DNA of 64,000 nucleotides from Escherichia coli (lineage in GTDB: Bacteria; Pseudomonadota; Gammaproteobacteria; Enterobacterales; Enterobacteriaceae), in the NCBI RefSeq assembly GCF_044324875.1, contig NZ_CP172185.1, one strand, 5' to 3'. This document shows, piece by piece, positions 9,516 to 26,883 of this stretch. Position numbers and translations under genes: made by a program. The notes beneath the pieces were generated by a model. It was not told the DNA's origin. It saw only the letters and a program-made list of their open reading frames with translations, and did no database searches. Positions within the stretch are counted from its first letter, which is position 1. Each line of letters begins with the position of its first letter.

Positions 9516-10310
9516 ATGGGATTTTTTAATACATTGTTTAATAAGAAAGAATCATTAACGCTGTCGAATAAATGGGAATTCTTTATTACCACGGTGGAAG
9601 ATAATGTAACGGGCATACGTGTAGATATTGGCGCAATTGAGGACGAAAAATTTGATCGTCTTATCCACACATGGTTTTTACGTGTCCGTTATACTGACTG
9701 TTATGAAAACGGTTTTCCGCAACCTGATGAAACACAGCGTTTAAATCGTATTGAGGACTGGCTTGAGGCGCAGGGTAAAACACTACCGATCTGGCTAGTG
9801 GGTGTGGTTACGCAACAAGGTTCACGCGATTTTGTTTTCCAGTCAGAAAAAGACCTGGACTGGGAAAAGACATTGGATAAATTGTTGGCAGGTGGCCCGG
9901 AGCTCGCTTGCAGCTTTAATGAGAGTAAAAACGACCACGGAAATTACTACCGCCAGTTTTTGTATCCAACCAAATACGACTGGAACTGGATACACGATTC
10001 CCGAGTATGCCGCGGGTTACTGGAGCATGGTGACGATTTGACTCTCCCACGCACCATCGATTATTACGCGACATTGCCGACAGAAACTGCGGCCCACGCC
10101 TTTGTGGAGGACGTGACGAAATTGCCATATGGCATCACGCTGGTGAGCATTCGGATGAACGACCAACAACCGGAGTATATGGCGTCATTGATTAACACTG
10201 ATGCTCCGGAACAATGGCATATGACCGATATCACATGCCAGCTTACCGATTTGGCGGAAAAGCATGGAGGTAGTTTTGATGGCTGGGGCGCACCGATAGC
10301 AACGGCATAA
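9516..10310 (+). CDS. Accessory protein, apparent DUF695 N-terminal domain fused to an RraB-like (regulator of RNase activity B fold) C-terminal domain
   Basis: First ATG after the rpsI terminator in ORF 9285-10310, AAGGA RBS about 9 nt upstream; 264 aa; C-terminal ...QLTDLAEKHGGSFDGWGAPIA resembles the RraB family; no gene at this site in K-12 as I recall. Confidence 0.6.
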   Translation: MGFFNTLFNKKESLTLSNKWEFFITTVEDNVTGIRVDIGAIEDEKFDRLIHTWFLRVRYTDCYENGFPQPDETQRLNRIEDWLEAQGKTLPIWLVGVVTQQGSRDFVFQSEKDLDWEKTLDKLLAGGPELACSFNESKNDHGNYYRQFLYPTKYDWNWIHDSRVCRGLLEHGDDLTLPRTIDYYATLPTETAAHAFVEDVTKLPYGITLVSIRMNDQQPEYMASLINTDAPEQWHMTDITCQLTDLAEKHGGSFDGWGAPIATA

Positions 10311-11222: not shown

Positions 11223-11720
11223 ATGGATTTGTCACAGCTAACACCACGTCGTCCCTATCTGCTGCGTGCATTCTATGAGTGGTTGCTGGATAACCAGCTC
11301 ACGCCGCACCTGGTGGTGGATGTGACGCTCCCTGGCGTGCAGGTTCCTATGGAATATGCGCGTGACGGGCAAATCGTACTCAACATTGCGCCGCGTGCTG
11401 TCGGCAATCTGGAACTGGCGAATGATGAGGTGCGCTTTAACGCGCGCTTTGGTGGCATTCCGCGTCAGGTTTCTGTGCCGCTGGCTGCCGTGCTGGCTAT
11501 CTACGCCCGTGAAAATGGCGCAGGCACGATGTTTGAACCTGAAGCTGCCTATGATGAAGATGCCAACATCATGAATGATGAAGAGGCATCGGCAGACAAC
11601 GAAACCGTTATGTCGGTTATTGATGGCGACAAGCCAGATCACGATGATGACACTCATCCTGACGATGAACCACCGCAGCCACCACGTGGTGGTCGACCAG
11701 CATTACGCGTTGTGAAGTAA
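11223..11720 (+). CDS. sspB: ClpXP adaptor SspB
   Basis: 165-aa ORF MDLSQLTPRRPYLLRAFYEWLLDNQLTPHLVVDV... Confidence 0.95.
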   Translation: MDLSQLTPRRPYLLRAFYEWLLDNQLTPHLVVDVTLPGVQVPMEYARDGQIVLNIAPRAVGNLELANDEVRFNARFGGIPRQVSVPLAAVLAIYARENGAGTMFEPEAAYDEDANIMNDEEASADNETVMSVIDGDKPDHDDDTHPDDEPPQPPRGGRPALRVVK

Positions 11721-11724
11721 TACT

Positions 11725-11757
11725 AAAACAGGCCCTGGCGGCCTGTTTTGTCTTTTT
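11725..11757. terminator. Bidirectional terminator between sspB and dcuD
   Basis: AAAACAGGCC-CTGGC-GGCCTGTTTT stem followed by a T-run. Confidence 0.75.
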
Positions 11758-11763
11758 AATCGC

Positions 11764-13131
11764 TTAATAAAATAGCGTGATAGTGGCAATCATATTCACC
11801 ACGAAACCGACTGCCATGGGGATCGCTGTCCGCTTCACTACCGCAAAAGGCGAAACGCCTGCAATTCCTGACGTAACGACCACCACCGCAGTAATCGGCG
11901 AAACAGCGCGCGCTAGCGTCGTGGCAAAATGCATCGGCATAATCATTACAACCGCTGGTACATGTAGTCCGGCTGCGATATTCGGAATAAGACTGGCAAA
12001 TGACATAAACGGCGCATTGCCTGAGCCCATCACAATGGCACAAATGGCAATGACCAGCGCCATAATAATCATCACGCCAATACCGCCCAGGCCAGAATGC
12101 TCCGCACCCCTGATAACCGCATCGACAGTGCCAATCGTCGTTAAGCCTTTCGCAAATATTTCACCCGCGACCACCAGCGTTACCACGTTGGCAAACTGCG
12201 TACCCATGCCGTCAAAAAACGCCTGCACATCGTCCATTGTTTCGCGCAAGTTATGCTTGCGGAAGAACTCAACAAACATCGTCACCGTCAAACTCAGTAA
12301 CATCACCACCACCAGATGCAGTTCTGACTGCATCAGCCCGACGTGGGCAAGGAACAGCGAGCCGAGCATCAGGATTAACGGCATCACAGGTAAAATGGCG
12401 TAATAGAGCGGCGGGACATTATCGAGAGCTTTTTGCTCTGCCTGTTCGTGATTGATATTTTTATCTTTTTTGTCGAAAGCGCGTTGCACGAAAAAGTGGG
12501 AGATCGCCACCGAGATAATGACGCAAGAGGCGACCGGAAGCTGGTAGTGGAAGAAGTAAGTGGCAATTTTCATTCCTGCTACCTGGGCAGCAAAAATGGA
12601 GTTCGTTTCCAGAATCCCCCACTCAATGGACATGGTGGTTGCGATAACCGCCACCGCAGAGAGACGACTTACTCCCAGACTCACCAGCGTCGGAAATAAG
12701 GTGACCATCAGCAACATACCCAGACCGGAGGCGCTGGTAATAAACTGCGCCATGATTTGGCCGATGACGTAAGTTGCCGACAGAATAATATACGGCGAGC
12801 GAATAAGTTTTAACGGGCGGCTTAACAAGCTCACCATCGCACGACTGGCCCCTATGCGCTCCATATAGCGGGCATAACCGCCCACTGCCATAATCGACAG
12901 CCCCAATCCGGCAATGCGGTTGGACAGCATGCGCAGGATTTCATTATAAATATCGACGATCAAGTAGCCGCTGCTTTTGGCGGGATCGAGCACACCACCG
13001 AACCCTAACCAGACACCGCACATCATCAGGAAGATACCTGCGGCAGCCAGCACCACCTGAGGTTTGTAGTTTTTCAGGATCAAATAGCCCATCGTAATTA
13101 ATACGATGACAGATATAATTATGCCGAACAT
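11764..13131 (-). CDS. dcuD: Anaerobic C4-dicarboxylate transporter (DcuC family) DcuD
   Basis: ORF 11764-13149; start taken at [25 protein letters not shown] (455 aa). Confidence 0.9.
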
Positions 13132-13510
13132 TGTTGAACTCCGTGTCAAAAGAAAACGGTCAATCCCATAAACGGCAGATTGAAAACAATGATGTTATAT
13201 TTTTTGCAAGGCTATTTATGGTGCGGATGTCGTGTTTTTAATTGTAGATGAGGTGATTTTTCATTAAAAAATATGCGCTTATGATTATTTTGTAAGAACA
13301 CATTCATAATATTCATAATACTTGTTAATAGTCTTATGAATAATTCAATCGGGATGTTTTTATCTGCGTTACATTAATTTTTCGCAATAGTTAATTATTC
13401 AGTTAATTATAGTAATGATGAGGCACAAAGAGAAAACCCCGCCATTTCCCCCTACTTTCAATCCTGTGATAGGATGTCACTGATGATGTTAATCACACTG
13501 ACCTTACAGA

Positions 13511-17653: not shown

Positions 17654-18986
<1,333 letters not shown>

Positions 18987-19005
18987 AACTTAGTTCGTTT
19001 TAAAG

Positions 19006-19030
19006 ATTCTCCAGACAGTGTCTGGAGAAT
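19006..19030. repeat. 25-bp palindrome ATTCTCCAGACA-G-TGTCTGGAGAAT between convergent yhcH and yhcG; probable bidirectional terminator and member of a local palindromic repeat family
   Basis: Perfect 12-bp arms around a 1-nt centre, read directly. Confidence 0.6.
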
Positions 19031-19045
19031 TCGAAACCGCTGAAA

Positions 19046-20134
19046 TTAACGGCGTCTATAGCCTTCCTCTAGCACCGCCTGTGTTCGAACGAGTTCATCT
19101 GCGAGTCGTTTCTCATCAGGTAGTTGCATCTTATATTCGCTTGCCAGAACGGTGTTAGGCAAACCTGCCAGAGCATAATGCGCTTCGCCGGCTCCTTTCT
19201 CTGCACAGAGAATCAGACCGATGGGCGGATTTTCATCCGGTAGCGTCCAGTGATCTTTGGCGTAGTTGAGATACATATTCATCTGTCCGGCATCGCTATA
19301 GCTGAATTTGCCCACTTTTAGATCGACGATTAGCAGGCAGCATAAACGGCGGTGGAAAAACAGCAGATCGACACGAAACCAGTTATCATCAATGCGTAAC
19401 CTTCGCTGCCGACCAACAAAGGCAAAATCATCCCCAAGTTCCAGCATGAAATCCATCAGGTGGTTGATCAGCGCCTCCTCGAAATCAGATTCTGAATATT
19501 CATCTTTCAATTCCAGAAATTCGAGCACAAAGGGATCGCGTATCGCCTGCTGCGGAAGAATATGCGTCTCGGTAGGAGCGTGTTGTTGCAGCATGGCTGA
19601 TTTGTCATGTGACAGTAGTGTTCGCTCATAAAATTGGGTCGCAATTTGCCGCTCTAGCTGGCGAACAGACCAGCCACAGCGGAGCGTCTCTTTTTCATAA
19701 AAGCTACGAGCGTCAGCGTTTTTAACAGAAAGCAAACGGACGTAAGTGGACCAGGGCCGGGGGAAAGATTTGGCAGACAGCGTCTGCCAAATCTTTCCCG
19801 ATGGGAATTCTGCAGACGGTGTCTGCGGAATTTCAACATGTTGAAAAAAGAGGTAAAAAAGTCTCATTTGGCGCAAGTTTTTTGCAGAGAACCCACGCTT
19901 ATACCTTAGACATAAATCCTTTGATAGTCGCTTGATTAGCTGCGCACCATACGCAGCCCTGGCCTCGCCACCTTGTTCAAATTCGACAATTCGTCGGCCA
20001 ATTTCCCAGTATGTCGCGGTCATCAGCGCGTTAACGCTACGTACCGTTTCCGTCCGGGCGCTATCGACCAGGTGAATAATACCGTCGTGGATTTGCTGGT
20101 AGCCTGTTGAGGTTCTCTCTGAGAGCGATTCCAT
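19046..20134 (-). CDS. yhcG: YhcG, DUF1016 protein with predicted PD-(D/E)xK nuclease fold
   Basis: 362-aa ORF MESLSERTSTGYQQIHDGIIHLVDSARTETVRSVNALMTATYWEIGRRIVEFEQGG... Confidence 0.85.
   Translation of the reverse strand: MESLSERTSTGYQQIHDGIIHLVDSARTETVRSVNALMTATYWEIGRRIVEFEQGGEARAAYGAQLIKRLSKDLCLRYKRGFSAKNLRQMRLFYLFFQHVEIPQTPSAEFPSGKIWQTLSAKSFPRPWSTYVRLLSVKNADARSFYEKETLRCGWSVRQLERQIATQFYERTLLSHDKSAMLQQHAPTETHILPQQAIRDPFVLEFLELKDEYSESDFEEALINHLMDFMLELGDDFAFVGRQRRLRIDDNWFRVDLLFFHRRLCCLLIVDLKVGKFSYSDAGQMNMYLNYAKDHWTLPDENPPIGLILCAEKGAGEAHYALAGLPNTVLASEYKMQLPDEKRLADELVRTQAVLEEGYRRR
19761..19832. repeat. Two adjacent palindromic units inside the yhcG reading frame, related to the 19006-19030 palindrome
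   Basis: 19761-19799 perfect 18-bp arms around AGC (GGGAAAGATTTGGCAGAC/GTCTGCCAAATCTTTCCC); 19805-19832 imperfect copy GAATTCTGCAGACGGTGTCTGCGGAATT; shared core CAGAC(A/G)G(C/T)GTCTG. Confidence 0.6.
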
Positions 20135-20317
20135 TATCTGTCCCTTTATATGGCGCTGCGTTGAATAATGGAATCAGCTATACGCCGGGCATCTACCGGT
20201 AACAATCCAGATGTGCGTATTACATTGGTTTTCTTCAGATTATGCGAGGCGCTTTCCAGTACGAAAGGAGAATTTCAGCGCCGACTCTTTTCTGAGGAGG
20301 CGGCGCTGGGACAGAGT

Positions 20318-21748
<1,431 letters not shown>

Positions 21749-24700
21749 TTACTGCGCCTGCACGCGCAACTCTGCTGCGCTACGACTACGGTGACCCAGC
21801 AGTGCTTTTACATCACTGGACTTCGGTTTAACCAGCGCAAATTTAGTGGCGAAGGTTGACCAGTTCGCCAGAATCTCTTCACCACGCTGGGAACCGGTAT
21901 GCTGCACATGCTCGGTGATAAGTCCACGCAGATGCTCTTCATGGATCGCCAGATCGTCAACGCTTAAGACCTCGACCAGTTCCGGGTTAACGCGTTTGCG
22001 GAAATCGCCGCTTTCATCGAGAACGTAAGCGAAGCCGCCGGTCATGCCCGCGCCGAAGTTAACGCCGGTTTTACCGAGAATACAGACAATACCGCCTGTC
22101 ATATATTCACAGCCGTTGTCGCCAATGCCTTCTACCACGGTGATAGCACCGGAGTTACGCACGCCGAAACGTTCACCCGCGCGGCCTGCGGCATACAGAC
22201 GACCTCCGGTCGCGCCATACAGGCAGGTGTTGCCGATAATGCTTGCTTCATGGCTGCGGAAGGCTGAGCCAACCGGAGGACGAATGGCGATTAAGCCGCC
22301 CGCCATGCCTTTACCAACATAGTCGTTGGCATCACCGGTCAGGTACAGTTCCACGCCGCCCGCGTTCCACACGCCGAAGCTCTGGCCTGCGGTGCCGTTG
22401 AAGTACGCTTTGATCGGATCGGCTGCCAGACCCTGATCGCCGTGCGTCTGGGCGATATAGCCTGAAAGCGACGCGCCGACAGAACGGTCGGTGTTGCGAA
22501 TATCGAACCAGAAGGTTTTGCTCTGACGCTCATCGACAAACGGTTTTGCCTGTTGCAGCAACTGCGCGTTCAGCAGACCGTTATCAAACGGCGGGTTGTT
22601 TTCGGTGCAGTAAAGTGCCTTACCAGCATGCGGCTCGGCAGTCTCCAGCAGCTTCGACAGTGCCAGTTTCTGCTGTTTGGCGGTGAAACCGTCCAGCTCT
22701 TTCAGCAGGTCGGTGCGACCAATCAGATCCACCAGACGCGTTACCCCCAGTTGTGCCATCAGCTCGCGGGTTTCTCGGGCGATAAACTCAAAGTAATTAG
22801 TCACCTTGAACGGCAGGCCGTGATAGTGATTCTTACGCAGTTTGTCATCCTGAGTTGCAACACCCGTAGCGCAGTTGTTCAGATGGCAAATACGCAGATA
22901 TTTACAACCGAGCGCCACCATCGGGCCAGTGCCGAAGCCGAAGCTTTCTGCGCCGAGAATCGCCGCTTTGATGATATCGACACCCGTTTTCAGGCCGCCA
23001 TCAACCTGCAAACGAATTTTATGACGTAAACCGTTGGCAACCAGCGCCTGTTGGGTTTCCACCAGGCCGAGTTCCCACGGACAGCCTGCGTATTTCACCG
23101 ATGAAAGCGGACTTGCGCCGGTGCCGCCGTCATAGCCTGCGATGGTGATCAAGTCCGCATAAGCTTTCGCCACGCCAGTCGCGATGGTGCCGACGCCCGG
23201 TTCGGACACCAGCTTCACGGAGATCATCGCTTTCGGGTTAACCTGCTTGAGGTCGAAAATGAGCTGCGCTAAGTCCTCGATAGAATAGATATCGTGGTGC
23301 GGCGGCGGGGAGATCAGCGTCACGCCCGGCACCGAATAGCGCAGTTTGGCAATGTAAGGAGTGACTTTATCACCCGGCAACTGACCTCCTTCGCCCGGCT
23401 TCGCGCCCTGGGCGACTTTAATCTGAATCACGTCAGCATTGACCAGGTACGCCGGAGTAACGCCGAAGCGACCAGAAGCCACCTGCTTGATGCGCGACAC
23501 TTTGTTAGTGCCGTAGCGCGCCGGATCTTCACCACCTTCACCGGAGTTCGAGTTACCGCCGATGCTATTCATCGCTTCCGCCAGCGCCTCGTGGGCTTCC
23601 GGGCTTAACGCGCCGATAGACATCGCAGCGGTATCGAAGCGTTTAAACAGTTCGCTTGCCGGTTCAACATCGGCAATGTTGACTGCGTTTTCACCCGGCG
23701 TAATTGCCAGCAGATCGCGCAGCGTGGTTGCCGGACGCTCATTAACCAGCTTCGCGTATTCCTGATAGTCGCTGTACTCGCCGCTTTGTACCGCCTGTTG
23801 CAGCGTGCGCACCACGTCCGGGTTGTAGGCGTGGTATTCGCCGCCGTGGACGTATTTCAGCAGGCCGCCCTGGCTGATGGGCTTACGCGCCAGCCAGGCA
23901 CGTTTCGACAGGTTCAGCAGATCCTGCTGGAAGTCTTCAAAGCTTGCCCCACCAATGCGGCTGACCGCTCCCTGGAAGCACAGGCCCACTACATCATCGT
24001 GTAGACCGACCGCTTCAAACAGTTTCGAGCAGCGGTAAGAGGCGATGGTGGAGATGCCCATTTTGGACATGATTTTGTACAAGCCTTTGTTGATGCCGTT
24101 ACGGTAGTTCAGCATCACTGTACGATAATCTTTGGCAATCGCATGGGTGTCTACCAGGCGGCCCAGCGTTTCATAGGCAAGGTATGGATAAATAGCCGTC
24201 GCACCGAAGCCCAGCAACACGGCGAAATGGTGCGGATCGCGGGCGCTGGCGGTTTCGACGATGATGTTGGCATCGCAACGCAGGCTTTGATCGACCAGAC
24301 GGGTCTGGATCGCGCCAACCGCCATCGGGGCTGGAACCGGCAGGCGATCTTTAGCGATATTCCGGTCGGAGAGCACCAGCAGCACGGTGCCGCTACGTAC
24401 CATTTTTTCGGCTTTGTCACACAGCTCTTTGACCGTCGCTTCGAGCGTTGTTTTAGTGACGTCAAAGGTGATATCCAGCGTATCTGCGCGGTAGTGCTCC
24501 TCTTTCATCGTCGTGAGCTGTTTGAAATCGGAGTAGAGCAGAATCGGCGATTTAAAGCTTAAACGGTGCGCCTGGCCTTCTGCTTCACAGAAGACGTTCA
24601 TTTCACGACCGATACTGGTGGCGAGCGACATAACATGCGCTTCACGCAGCGGGTCGATTGGCGGGTTAGTCACCTGGGCAAATTGCTGGCGGAAGTAGTC

Positions 24701-26302
24701 GTAAATGATGCGTGGCTGACTGGAGAGCACGGCGAATGGGGTGTCGTCGCCCATCGAACCGACCGCTTCCTGACCGTTTTCGCCCAGCACGCGAATTACG
24801 GAGTCCAGCTCTTCCGCGCTGTAGTTAAACTGTTTCTGGTAGCTGGCAAGTGTGTCGTCGTCCAGTTCGCGGCTACCTACTTCTTCATCGGGCAGATCTT
24901 CAAACGGTACCAGTCGGCGGACGTTTTTCTCCATCCACTCTTTATATGGATGGCGGCTTTTCAGATCGTCATCGGTTTCTGCCGAGTGCAGAATACGCCC
25001 ACTGCGGGTGTCGATAACCATCAGTTCGCCTGGCCCGACGCGGCCTTTTTCGACCACTTCGTCAGGCTGGTAATCCCAGATACCGACTTCAGAGGCGCAG
25101 GTGATGAGCTTATCTTTGGTAATGACGTAGCGTGCCGGACGCAGACCGTTACGGTCGAGGTTACAGGCGGCAAAACGACCATCGGACATCACGATGCCCG
25201 CCGGGCCATCCCACGGCTCCATATGCATGGAGTTAAAGTCAAAGAAGGCACGCAGTTCCGGGTCCATATCCGGGTTGTTCTGCCAGGCGGGTGGCACTAA
25301 CAGGCGCATGGCACGGATGATATCCATCCCGCCTGCCAGCAGCAGTTCCAGCATGTTATCCATGGAACTGGAGTCAGAACCGGTTTCGTTGACGAACGGC
25401 GCGGCGTCGTGCAGGTCAGGGATCAGCGGCGTCTGGAATTTATAGGTACGTGCACGCGCCCATTGGCGGTTACCGGTGATGGTGTTGATTTCACCGTTAT
25501 GCGCCAGATAGCGGAACGGCTGCGCCAGCGGCCAGCGCGGTACGGTGTTAGTGGAGAAGCGCTGGTGGAACAGGCAGATGGCCGATTCCAGACGCAGGTC
25601 CGCGAGGTCCAGGTAGAAGCGCGGCAGATCCGCCGGCATACACAGACCTTTATAGATGTTCACCAGATTCGACAGGCTACAGACGTAGAAGTCTTTGTCG
25701 GCTTCGAGACGCTTTTCAATGCGGCGGCGGGCGATAAACAGACGGCGCTCCATATCGCGCGGACGCCAGCCTGCCGGGGCGTTCACAAAAATTTGCTCAA
25801 TGCGTGGCAGAGAGGAGAGGGCGATTTCACCCAGCACGCCTTCGTTAGTGGGGACATCACGCCAGCCCACAATCGACAACGTTTCGCGTTGCAGCTCTTC
25901 TTCAACGATGCGGCGTGCGGCAGCGGCGAGTTCAGGATCTTTATTCAGGAAGAGCATCCCGACGGCGTAGTTTTTTGCTAAACGCCAGCCGCGCTCCTGC
26001 GCAACGATGCGAAAAAAGCGATCCGGTTTTTGTAACAGCAAGCCGCAACCGTCACCGGTTTTACCATCGGCGAGAATCGCGCCACGGTGCTGCATGCGGG
26101 CCAGTGCGTGTATTGCAGTACGCACTACCTTGTGGCTAGGTTCGCCTTCTATGTGGGCGATCAGGCCGAAACCACAGTTATCCCTCTCAAGGGATTTATC
26201 GTACAACATATCGTGAACCTCCCCCAGGCTCTGCGGGAACCCCACTTCCGAACCGCTGCGCACGGGCACAGAAAGAGCGTGGCGACGGGGTTTGCGTGTC
26301 AT
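21749..26302 (-). CDS. gltB: Glutamate synthase large subunit
   Basis: ORF 21749-26317; start taken at MTRKPRRHALSVPVRSG... (propeptide before Cys of CGFGL), 1517 aa. Confidence 0.93.
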   Translation of the reverse strand: MTRKPRRHALSVPVRSGSEVGFPQSLGEVHDMLYDKSLERDNCGFGLIAHIEGEPSHKVVRTAIHALARMQHRGAILADGKTGDGCGLLLQKPDRFFRIVAQERGWRLAKNYAVGMLFLNKDPELAAAARRIVEEELQRETLSIVGWRDVPTNEGVLGEIALSSLPRIEQIFVNAPAGWRPRDMERRLFIARRRIEKRLEADKDFYVCSLSNLVNIYKGLCMPADLPRFYLDLADLRLESAICLFHQRFSTNTVPRWPLAQPFRYLAHNGEINTITGNRQWARARTYKFQTPLIPDLHDAAPFVNETGSDSSSMDNMLELLLAGGMDIIRAMRLLVPPAWQNNPDMDPELRAFFDFNSMHMEPWDGPAGIVMSDGRFAACNLDRNGLRPARYVITKDKLITCASEVGIWDYQPDEVVEKGRVGPGELMVIDTRSGRILHSAETDDDLKSRHPYKEWMEKNVRRLVPFEDLPDEEVGSRELDDDTLASYQKQFNYSAEELDSVIRVLGENGQEAVGSMGDDTPFAVLSSQPRIIYDYFRQQFAQVTNPPIDPLREAHVMSLATSIGREMNVFCEAEGQAHRLSFKSPILLYSDFKQLTTMKEEHYRADTLDITFDVTKTTLEATVKELCDKAEKMVRSGTVLLVLSDRNIAKDRLPVPAPMAVGAIQTRLVDQSLRCDANIIVETASARDPHHFAVLLGFGATAIYPYLAYETLGRLVDTHAIAKDYRTVMLNYRNGINKGLYKIMSKMGISTIASYRCSKLFEAVGLHDDVVGLCFQGAVSRIGGASFEDFQQDLLNLSKRAWLARKPISQGGLLKYVHGGEYHAYNPDVVRTLQQAVQSGEYSDYQEYAKLVNERPATTLRDLLAITPGENAVNIADVEPASELFKRFDTAAMSIGALSPEAHEALAEAMNSIGGNSNSGEGGEDPARYGTNKVSRIKQVASGRFGVTPAYLVNADVIQIKVAQGAKPGEGGQLPGDKVTPYIAKLRYSVPGVTLISPPPHHDIYSIEDLAQLIFDLKQVNPKAMISVKLVSEPGVGTIATGVAKAYADLITIAGYDGGTGASPLSSVKYAGCPWELGLVETQQALVANGLRHKIRLQVDGGLKTGVDIIKAAILGAESFGFGTGPMVALGCKYLRICHLNNCATGVATQDDKLRKNHYHGLPFKVTNYFEFIARETRELMAQLGVTRLVDLIGRTDLLKELDGFTAKQQKLALSKLLETAEPHAGKALYCTENNPPFDNGLLNAQLLQQAKPFVDERQSKTFWFDIRNTDRSVGASLSGYIAQTHGDQGLAADPIKAYFNGTAGQSFGVWNAGGVELYLTGDANDYVGKGMAGGLIAIRPPVGSAFRSHEASIIGNTCLYGATGGRLYAAGRAGERFGVRNSGAITVVEGIGDNGCEYMTGGIVCILGKTGVNFGAGMTGGFAYVLDESGDFRKRVNPELVEVLSVDDLAIHEEHLRGLITEHVQHTGSQRGEEILANWSTFATKFALVKPKSSDVKALLGHRSRSAAELRVQAQ

Positions 26303-26883
26303 ACGCGCGCCTCGCATTCGCCCCCTTGTTGTCCTTTTCGCATCGGTTAATACGGTGAAGAGGGGATCTCAATTACTGCATAAATATGATGAGCAGGCTG
26401 CTCATCCAGAAAGCTTCCAGCGGATTTCCAACTTATCGGGAAAGCTGATACAGGTCAAATGGCAAGCTTATTGGTACAGAAATGTGCTTTAGCGCAAAAT
26501 TCTTTATTAATTGGCTGAAATTAAAATAGATTTTCTATTTAAGGCTAAAAGGGAAGTCGTTAGAGAAACATCCAATTCCTGACTGTCATAAAGGCGTGTT
26601 AACCCTTATCCTGCCTTGAACTGACGAGAAAACCAGCATTTTATACTGCCTTAATTGGTAATGACGTTTCATGCTACTGTTTTTGCCTAAAATCCATAAG
26701 GAGATAAAAAAATCTGACACAAGATAAGCAAAAATGATTTATGTGATCATGCATGAAATTTCGGTAATTTTGATTGATTATGCAGTTGATAAAAGCGGGC
26801 CGGGACGATTGATCCAGGTCATCGCCGAATTGAGCTAAAAATGGCAGGCTTTGGCCTCTTTTCAAGGCGCGGTCTATCAGATT

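Follow-up and report, generated by a model that had tools for sequence, protein, structure and literature searches.

The 183-bp gltD-yhcG spacer of an Escherichia coli strain as a common allele of the variable gltD-nanQ interval

The window, that is, the whole stretch of 64,000 nucleotides that was analysed (contig NZ_CP172185.1), carries gltD, yhcG and nanQ in close succession. A first-pass annotation, made from the letters alone, had placed gltD and yhcG only 183 bp apart (20135-20317), and both the sequence and its list of open reading frames bear out these positions. The encoded GltD is 99.2% identical in amino acids to the K-12 protein, and YhcG contains its two domains (PF17761, 140.7 bits; PF06250, 190 bits) at scores above the Pfam cut-offs. 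The features of the interval are collected in Table 1.

Table 1. Genes and sequence features of the gltD-nanQ interval (positions of the window).
Feature	Position	Strand	Remarks
nanQ (yhcH)	18522-18986	+	NCBIfam NF040884, 235 bits; convergent with yhcG and gltD; right anchor of the variable interval
Palindrome of the yhcG family (TTCTCCAGACAGTGTCTGGAGAA) in the nanQ-yhcG spacer	19005-19031		Homologous to the nanQ-gltD copy of ATCC 25922 and to the post-gltD copy of K-12
yhcG	19046-20134	-	Intact, 362 aa; DUF1016_N and YhcG_C; PDDEXK nuclease-family
Two tandem 39-bp units inside yhcG	19761-19838		Each a perfect palindrome; CAGAC-N3-GTCTG cores at 19774-19786 and 19813-19825
gltD-yhcG spacer, operon-free, yhcG-present allele (type 1)	20135-20317		Full match in 3139/5426 E. 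coli
yhcG 5' region common to the K-12 yhcF-yhcG spacer	20135-20257	-	From alignments
Left arm of the terminal inverted repeat, TCTGTCCC	20137-20144		Overlaps the yhcG ribosome-binding region; also in K-12, E. albertii and L006
60 bp found only in the operon-free allele	20258-20317		From blastn breakpoints; conserved in E. albertii and L006
GC-rich hairpin, CAGCGCCG-N17-CGGCGCTG	20276-20308	-	Starts 9 nt after the gltD stop codon
Right arm of the terminal inverted repeat, GGGACAGA	20308-20315		Not conserved outside E. coli
gltD (glutamate synthase small subunit, 472 aa)	20318-21736	-	NCBIfam TIGR01318, 896 bits; left anchor of the variable interval

The K-12 record (NC_000913) shows the order gltD-gltF-yhcA-yhcD-yhcE (split by IS5)-yhcF-yhcG-nanQ. 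The statement in the first-pass annotation that gltF-yhcADEF, about 7 kb, separates gltD from yhcG in K-12 was therefore correct (the record gives ~7.1 kb), and gltD does not adjoin yhcG in K-12 itself. By blastn, K-12 up to the gltD stop codon aligns with positions 28934-20318 (97.3% identity) and, from 124 bp upstream of yhcG, with positions 20257-13000 (95.5% identity), both blocks being collinear. Between the breakpoints, located at 20257/20258 and at the gltD stop codon, 7086 bp found only in K-12 face 60 bp found only in the window. The K-12 segment is made up of a palindrome flank, gltF-yhcADEF with IS5, and a further 61 bp. No tblastn match (E <= 1e-3) to K-12 GltF, YhcA, YhcD, YhcE or YhcF could be seen in the 64-kb window, so the marker genes of the Yhc locus, encoding DUF1120 subunits (gltF, yhcF), a PapD-type chaperone (yhcA) and an usher (yhcD), are missing as supposed, both at the gltD-yhcG site and from the window as a whole. 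A gltF copy outside the window is excluded only indirectly, by the approximate equality of gltF carriers and K-12-type junctions in the population counts given below.

The 123 bp of the spacer beside yhcG would constitute the 5' region of that gene. They are near-identical to K-12 beside the ATG and about 70% identical further out, and they include the yhcG Shine-Dalgarno sequence (AAAGGGACAGATA-ATG). The 60 bp beside gltD, in turn, showed no homology to the K-12 island (blastn-short) or to the sequences 3' of gltD at 16 other enterobacterial loci, and their global alignment with the 61 bp that follow the yhcF stop codon in K-12 and in a diverged Escherichia contig (L090) scored below the shuffle mean. 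The spacers are nearly equal in length (183 bp in the window and 184 bp between yhcF and yhcG in K-12); as no homologue of the 60 bp was found, this near-equality gives no evidence for a precise stop-to-stop deletion.

Within the 60-bp segment lies a hairpin with a minimum free energy of -19.2 kcal/mol (z = -3.5). Its arms, CAGCGCCG (20276-20283) and CGGCGCTG (20301-20308), match exactly as an inverted repeat of 8 bp. The structure is identical in the window, in E. albertii and in L006, a locus labelled E. coli. The first-pass annotation had noticed it as a GGCGCT...AGCGCC hairpin, a loose description of a real feature. Its tail (AAAUUCUCCUUUCGU) has no U run, and it was not called by a consensus terminator scan; it is placed like the terminator hairpins that follow gltD in other genera. 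It is probably a 3'-end or terminator structure of gltBD, which would most likely end or stabilise the gltBD transcript. The consensus promoter and terminator scan of positions 19900-20500 returned nothing, including no sigma-70 consensus promoter for yhcG, and the Rfam scan of positions 18900-20600 (E <= 1) gave only a spurious miRNA-model match on the yhcG palindromes.

At its two ends the spacer carries the 8-bp inverted repeat to which the first-pass annotation had drawn attention. The repeat is exact, but it neither bounds the difference from K-12 nor is conserved on the gltD side, because its left arm lies in the stretch shared with K-12 and its right arm reads otherwise in E. albertii and L006 (CTGTCCC in the window, CTGCTCC in E. 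albertii and CTGCCCC in L006, all read on the coding strand of gltD). An 8-bp inverted repeat was present anywhere in 15% of the shuffled 183-mers, and a repeat whose arms both lay 5 nt or less from the ends in 0.035%, a value to be read with the ends being set by gene boundaries and the match chosen post hoc. No direct repeat or target duplication flanks the spacer, and no IS sequences were found. An excision scar of a transposable element or a miniature inverted-repeat element was rejected, since the repeats do not bound the polymorphic segment, a target duplication is absent, the right arm is not conserved and the spacer is found once per genome (median 1, maximum 2 places).

A second family of repeats is found within and around yhcG, where perfect palindromes in a coding sequence are in themselves unusual. 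The 39-bp units follow the pattern AATTC-nCCAGAC-N3/4-GTCTGGn-GAATT and encode ..QT[VLM]S.. motifs; two are present in the window and in L006 (362 aa), and three in K-12 (L001, 16130-16250) and in 19KM1831 (375 aa). The family has 3 matches in the window against 0.06 expected. It is not a genome-wide REP-like repeat, being found at a median of 2 places per genome, all at the gltD-nanQ locus. Single copies lie beside nanQ and/or gltD in every allele (19005-19031 in the window, 11960-11990 in ATCC 25922 locus L003, 8632-8660 in K-12 locus L001, and ~11450-11480 in Pseudocitrobacter locus L011). The single copy of ATCC 25922 has the flank of K-12 on its gltD side and that of the window on its nanQ side; the K-12-type and B2-type sequences look as if they were separated by one event between two palindrome copies. 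Three independent rearrangements of yhcG end exactly at palindromes, namely an internal deletion in E. albertii (L005, 3400-3480), a truncation with a ~470-bp replacement in the B strain NEBExpress (L088, 14590-14620) and an internal deletion in L090 (15700-15870). That the intergenic palindromes are remnants of yhcG is suggestive but ambiguous: the match in Pseudocitrobacter spans 20 aa (E = 0.005 in a tiny database), and a palindrome reads similarly on both strands.

The frequency of each arrangement was determined among 5426 complete RefSeq E. coli genomes. A full spacer match, covering at least 80% of its length and in nearly all cases at 95% identity or more, was obtained in 3139 of them (58%), among which are O157:H7, O104:H4 and derivatives of the B strain such as NEBExpress. 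DNA of gltF was found in 1143 (21%), with identities of at least 99% in 1136 of the carriers, and this number agrees with the 1147 genomes that gave a K-12-like partial match, restricted to the yhcG-proximal 123 bp (query 1-123, 75.8%). The remaining class, about 1130 genomes without any match to the spacer, is B2-like and of the type of ATCC 25922, in which gltD is followed by 67 bp and then by nanQ, with neither the operon nor yhcG. Thus, the arrangement of the window is the commonest version in E. coli and K-12 represents a minority state. The absence pointed out in the first-pass annotation is on these counts an ordinary strain difference and not a lesion, and it has been documented before: BL21(DE3) lacks gltF beside gltBD (PMC6150544), and yhc appears in the literature as a chaperone-usher locus of the beta class that is sporadic and was seen in phylogroup A (PMC5216030, PMC3559732, PMC8174762), under-represented and confined to strains of that phylogroup (PMC3559732, PMC5216030).

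The best match to gltBD of the window (20318-26317) among complete E. coli genomes is 97.7% identical, a value within the range of the species because K-12 and ATCC 25922 are only 96.2% identical over the same genes. The exact YhcG protein of the window occurs in 285 collection blocks (draft and read-archive assemblies), and assembly GCA_016679215.1 is 99.98% identical to the window in gltBD; GCA_014589615.1 belongs to this lineage as well. The lineage seems to be under-represented among finished genomes, though frequent in draft and read-archive assemblies. Other presence/absence differences could be seen in the neighbourhood. Between rpsI and sspA the window has an inserted gene (9516-10310, plus strand) whose 264-aa product combines a DUF695 domain with an RraB (regulator of ribonuclease activity B) domain. 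Neither K-12 nor ATCC 25922 has this gene, and only 48 of the 5426 complete genomes do, at ~99.6% identity. A dcuD-type transporter gene (11750-13504, between sspB and nanR) is present in K-12 and in the lineage of the window (PF03606 gene, L085-L087) and missing from ATCC 25922, where nanR abuts sspB (L003, 6350-6458).

The comparison was extended to GTDB species representatives, scanned with GltD and then by tblastn and blastn; the 80 loci listed include no E. fergusonii, E. marmotae or E. ruysiae. The type strain of E. albertii, NBRC 107761 (L005), has the same spacer in collinear position, with its 60 bp and hairpin, followed by the first ~370 bp of yhcG and a deletion reaching nanQ. L006 shares only 92.5% identity with the window across 11.6 kb, and its gltD, 183-bp spacer and yhcG are arranged exactly as in the window. 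Conservation of the spacer amounts to ~92-100% across the 3139 E. coli genomes, E. albertii and L006. Because the same spacer is found in the E. albertii type strain and in L006, the arrangement is old and does not represent a recent scar; judged from these alignments, it is older than the species splits within Escherichia. In Pseudocitrobacter, some Enterobacter and Cedecea, gltD is directly convergent on nanQ.

The operon itself was also found in diverged form. A protein search with GltF revealed relatives of 78% and 61% identity on contigs that carry a complete gltF-yhcA-yhcD-yhcE-yhcF set, placed directly after gltD and oriented as in K-12 (L093; L089-L092). In L093 the gltD gene is 99.1% identical to that of E. 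albertii, GltF and YhcD are 78% and 82% identical to their K-12 counterparts, and yhcF is followed by a palindrome and nanQ, with no yhcG. In L089-L092, with gltBD about 94% identical to E. coli, the identities to K-12 are 61% for GltF, 78% for YhcA, 67% for YhcD, 78% for YhcE and 86% for YhcF; the yhcF-yhcG spacer is K-12-like and yhcG is decayed. E. albertii is polymorphic at the locus, the type strain being operon-free with a yhcG remnant and L093 having a complete diverged operon and no yhcG. All four combinations of operon and yhcG, each present or absent, occur across Escherichia, and the operon-present and operon-absent states are both long-standing polymorphisms. Yhc is an old presence/absence polymorphism, because diverged operons share the site in at least three Escherichia species. 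Outside the genus, a distant beta-type chaperone-usher operon lies directly after gltD, in opposite orientation, in Enterobacter asburiae (L012, 11464-17543) and E. cloacae (L013, 12006-15919), with amino acid identities to K-12 of 47-60% for YhcA, 41-49% for YhcD and 29-54% for DUF1120 subunits; in E. asburiae it replaces the nan operon between gltD and sspB. This fimbrial class appears to have settled repeatedly on the 3' side of gltD.

The reading that best accounts for these observations is that the window carries an inherited, common allele of the variable gltD-nanQ interval, with yhcG and without gltF-yhcADEF, and that nothing happened here in this strain (probability about 0.88). Divergence of the alleles sets in directly behind the gltD stop codon. 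Between K-12 and the B strain NEBExpress, identity is 99-100% over gltBD as far as that codon and the sequences differ beyond it, and on the other side their nanK, nanQ and yhcG are only 95-98% identical; moreover, a different hairpin-containing sequence stands right after the gltD stop codon in every allele and genus examined. Identity up to the gltD stop codon with a different sequence in each allele beyond it is what a cassette swap between conserved flanking genes would be expected to leave. To go by these patterns, the exchange of alleles would proceed by homologous recombination, with gltD as the anchor at one end and yhcG or the nan genes at the other, and further local rearrangements end at the locus-specific palindrome family. 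A broader picture, offered tentatively and held at clearly less than even odds, is that gltD-nanQ is a long-lived, multi-allelic cassette locus of Escherichia in which the palindromes serve as a substrate of recombination or breakage that creates and interconverts alleles, the 183-bp spacer being a stable allele end and not a scar.

The first-pass annotation had offered the spacer as either a deletion scar or an ancestral empty site. The site is indeed operon-free, and a recent scar can be set aside. A deletion of the K-12-type island specific to this strain or clone, of which the 183 bp would be the scar and the 8-bp repeat the footprint of the deleting element, would be favoured only by the K-12 comparison and by the exactness of the terminal repeat. 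It is very hard to reconcile with the conservation of the spacer in 3139 E. coli genomes, E. albertii and L006, with 60 bp that have no K-12 counterpart, with breakpoints (20257/20258 and the gltD stop codon) that do not coincide with the repeat arms, with a right arm that is not conserved, and with the lack of IS sequences or target duplications. An RNA element is improbable, if less so: in gltBD read-through RNA the terminal repeat would pair the sequence after gltD with the Shine-Dalgarno sequence of yhcG and block its translation. The whole spacer folds better than its shuffles (z = -2.8) in a structure closed by the terminal-repeat helix, the left arm overlaps the yhcG ribosome-binding site, and a repeat so placed is rare in shuffles (0.035%). 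However, the 1-2 changes that L006 and E. albertii show in the gltD-side arm are not compensated in the opposite arm, Rfam gives no match, and most of the stability comes from the local hairpin by itself.

The inherited allele may itself have arisen in either of two ways. Just short of an even chance is given to an ancient deletion, in which an ancestor of the order gltD-palindrome-gltF-yhcADEF-yhcG-palindrome-nanQ would have lost the operon and the palindrome on the gltD side ahead of the separation of E. coli from E. albertii. Deeply diverged operons stand at one site and point the same way in three Escherichia species, and the K-12 flank 3' of gltD (16 bp, palindrome and tail) has a homologous counterpart in Pseudocitrobacter (78% over 69 bp) and also in the B2 flank, while the 60-bp flank of the window occurs only in type-1 alleles; Enterobacter species, too, have a distant beta-class chaperone-usher operon beside gltD. 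Against this, a deletion creates no 60 bp of new conserved sequence, and the operon is low in GC (43%, compared with 56% for gltBD), as is acquired DNA. The opposite course, a plausible one that we would also hold below even odds, takes the yhcG-only arrangement as the older Escherichia state, an ancestral empty site into whose lineage the operon never entered, with the operon inserted later and spread by recombination. In this scenario the low GC of the island would be expected, and it is consistent with the majority status of type 1 (seen in B-strain, O104:H4 and O157:H7 genomes), with its presence in two other Escherichia lineages, with a nearly clonal gltF (at least 99% identity in 1136 of the 1143 E. 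coli carriers) reported only in phylogroup A (PMC5216030), and with the absence of any trace of operon sequence in the 60 bp. Nevertheless, to judge from the diverged operons that occupy this site in other species, the operon is old there too, and it is the operon-bearing allele that keeps the gltD flank shared with the outgroup genus Pseudocitrobacter. Parsimony fails to order the states because all four operon/yhcG combinations exist.

For this strain the missing operon matters little, since gltBD is intact and most E. coli lack gltF-yhcADEF. The first-pass annotation had supposed that the loss of gltF could affect the regulation of nitrogen assimilation; such a regulatory role was proposed by Castano et al. 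(1992), as cited in PMC6150544. GltF and YhcF are both DUF1120 proteins (Pfam). The regulatory role was reportedly not confirmed by Goss et al. in 2001. Elsewhere gltF is treated as the first gene, or subunit, of the beta-class gltF-yhcADEF chaperone-usher operon (PMC8174762, PMC5216030). GltF is a DUF1120 fimbrial-type periplasmic protein of the Yhc set and not a regulator that most E. coli possess, and glutamate synthase function would be independent of gltF. An effect on nitrogen regulation is unlikely because ~79% of E. coli, including BL21(DE3), are without gltF. K-12 is accordingly an atypical reference at this locus: 'gltBDF' is not conserved as an operon, and gltF is to be grouped with the fimbrial genes of Yhc. 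What is added to present knowledge is the existence of diverged gltF-yhcADEF versions at the same site in other Escherichia species. Their presence in at least three species bears on the question, left open by Wurpel et al. (2013), of whether Yhc was gained recently or is a remnant of ancient origin (PMC3559732).

With respect to known systems, the beta-class Yhc locus gltF-yhcADEF is precisely what separates the window from K-12, and none of its genes is present in the window. A close likeness is with the junction of the E. coli B or BL21(DE3) type, where the same spacer is found (98.4% identical in the B derivative NEBExpress). The two differ in yhcG, which is intact in the window, whereas in the B strain it breaks off at its third internal palindrome, beyond which lie ~470 bp of foreign DNA that include a small transposase-annotated gene. 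The B2-type arrangement of ATCC 25922 shares with the window the absence of gltF-yhcADEF and the presence of the same palindrome family next to nanQ, but it has neither yhcG nor the 183-bp spacer, and its gltD flank matches that of K-12.
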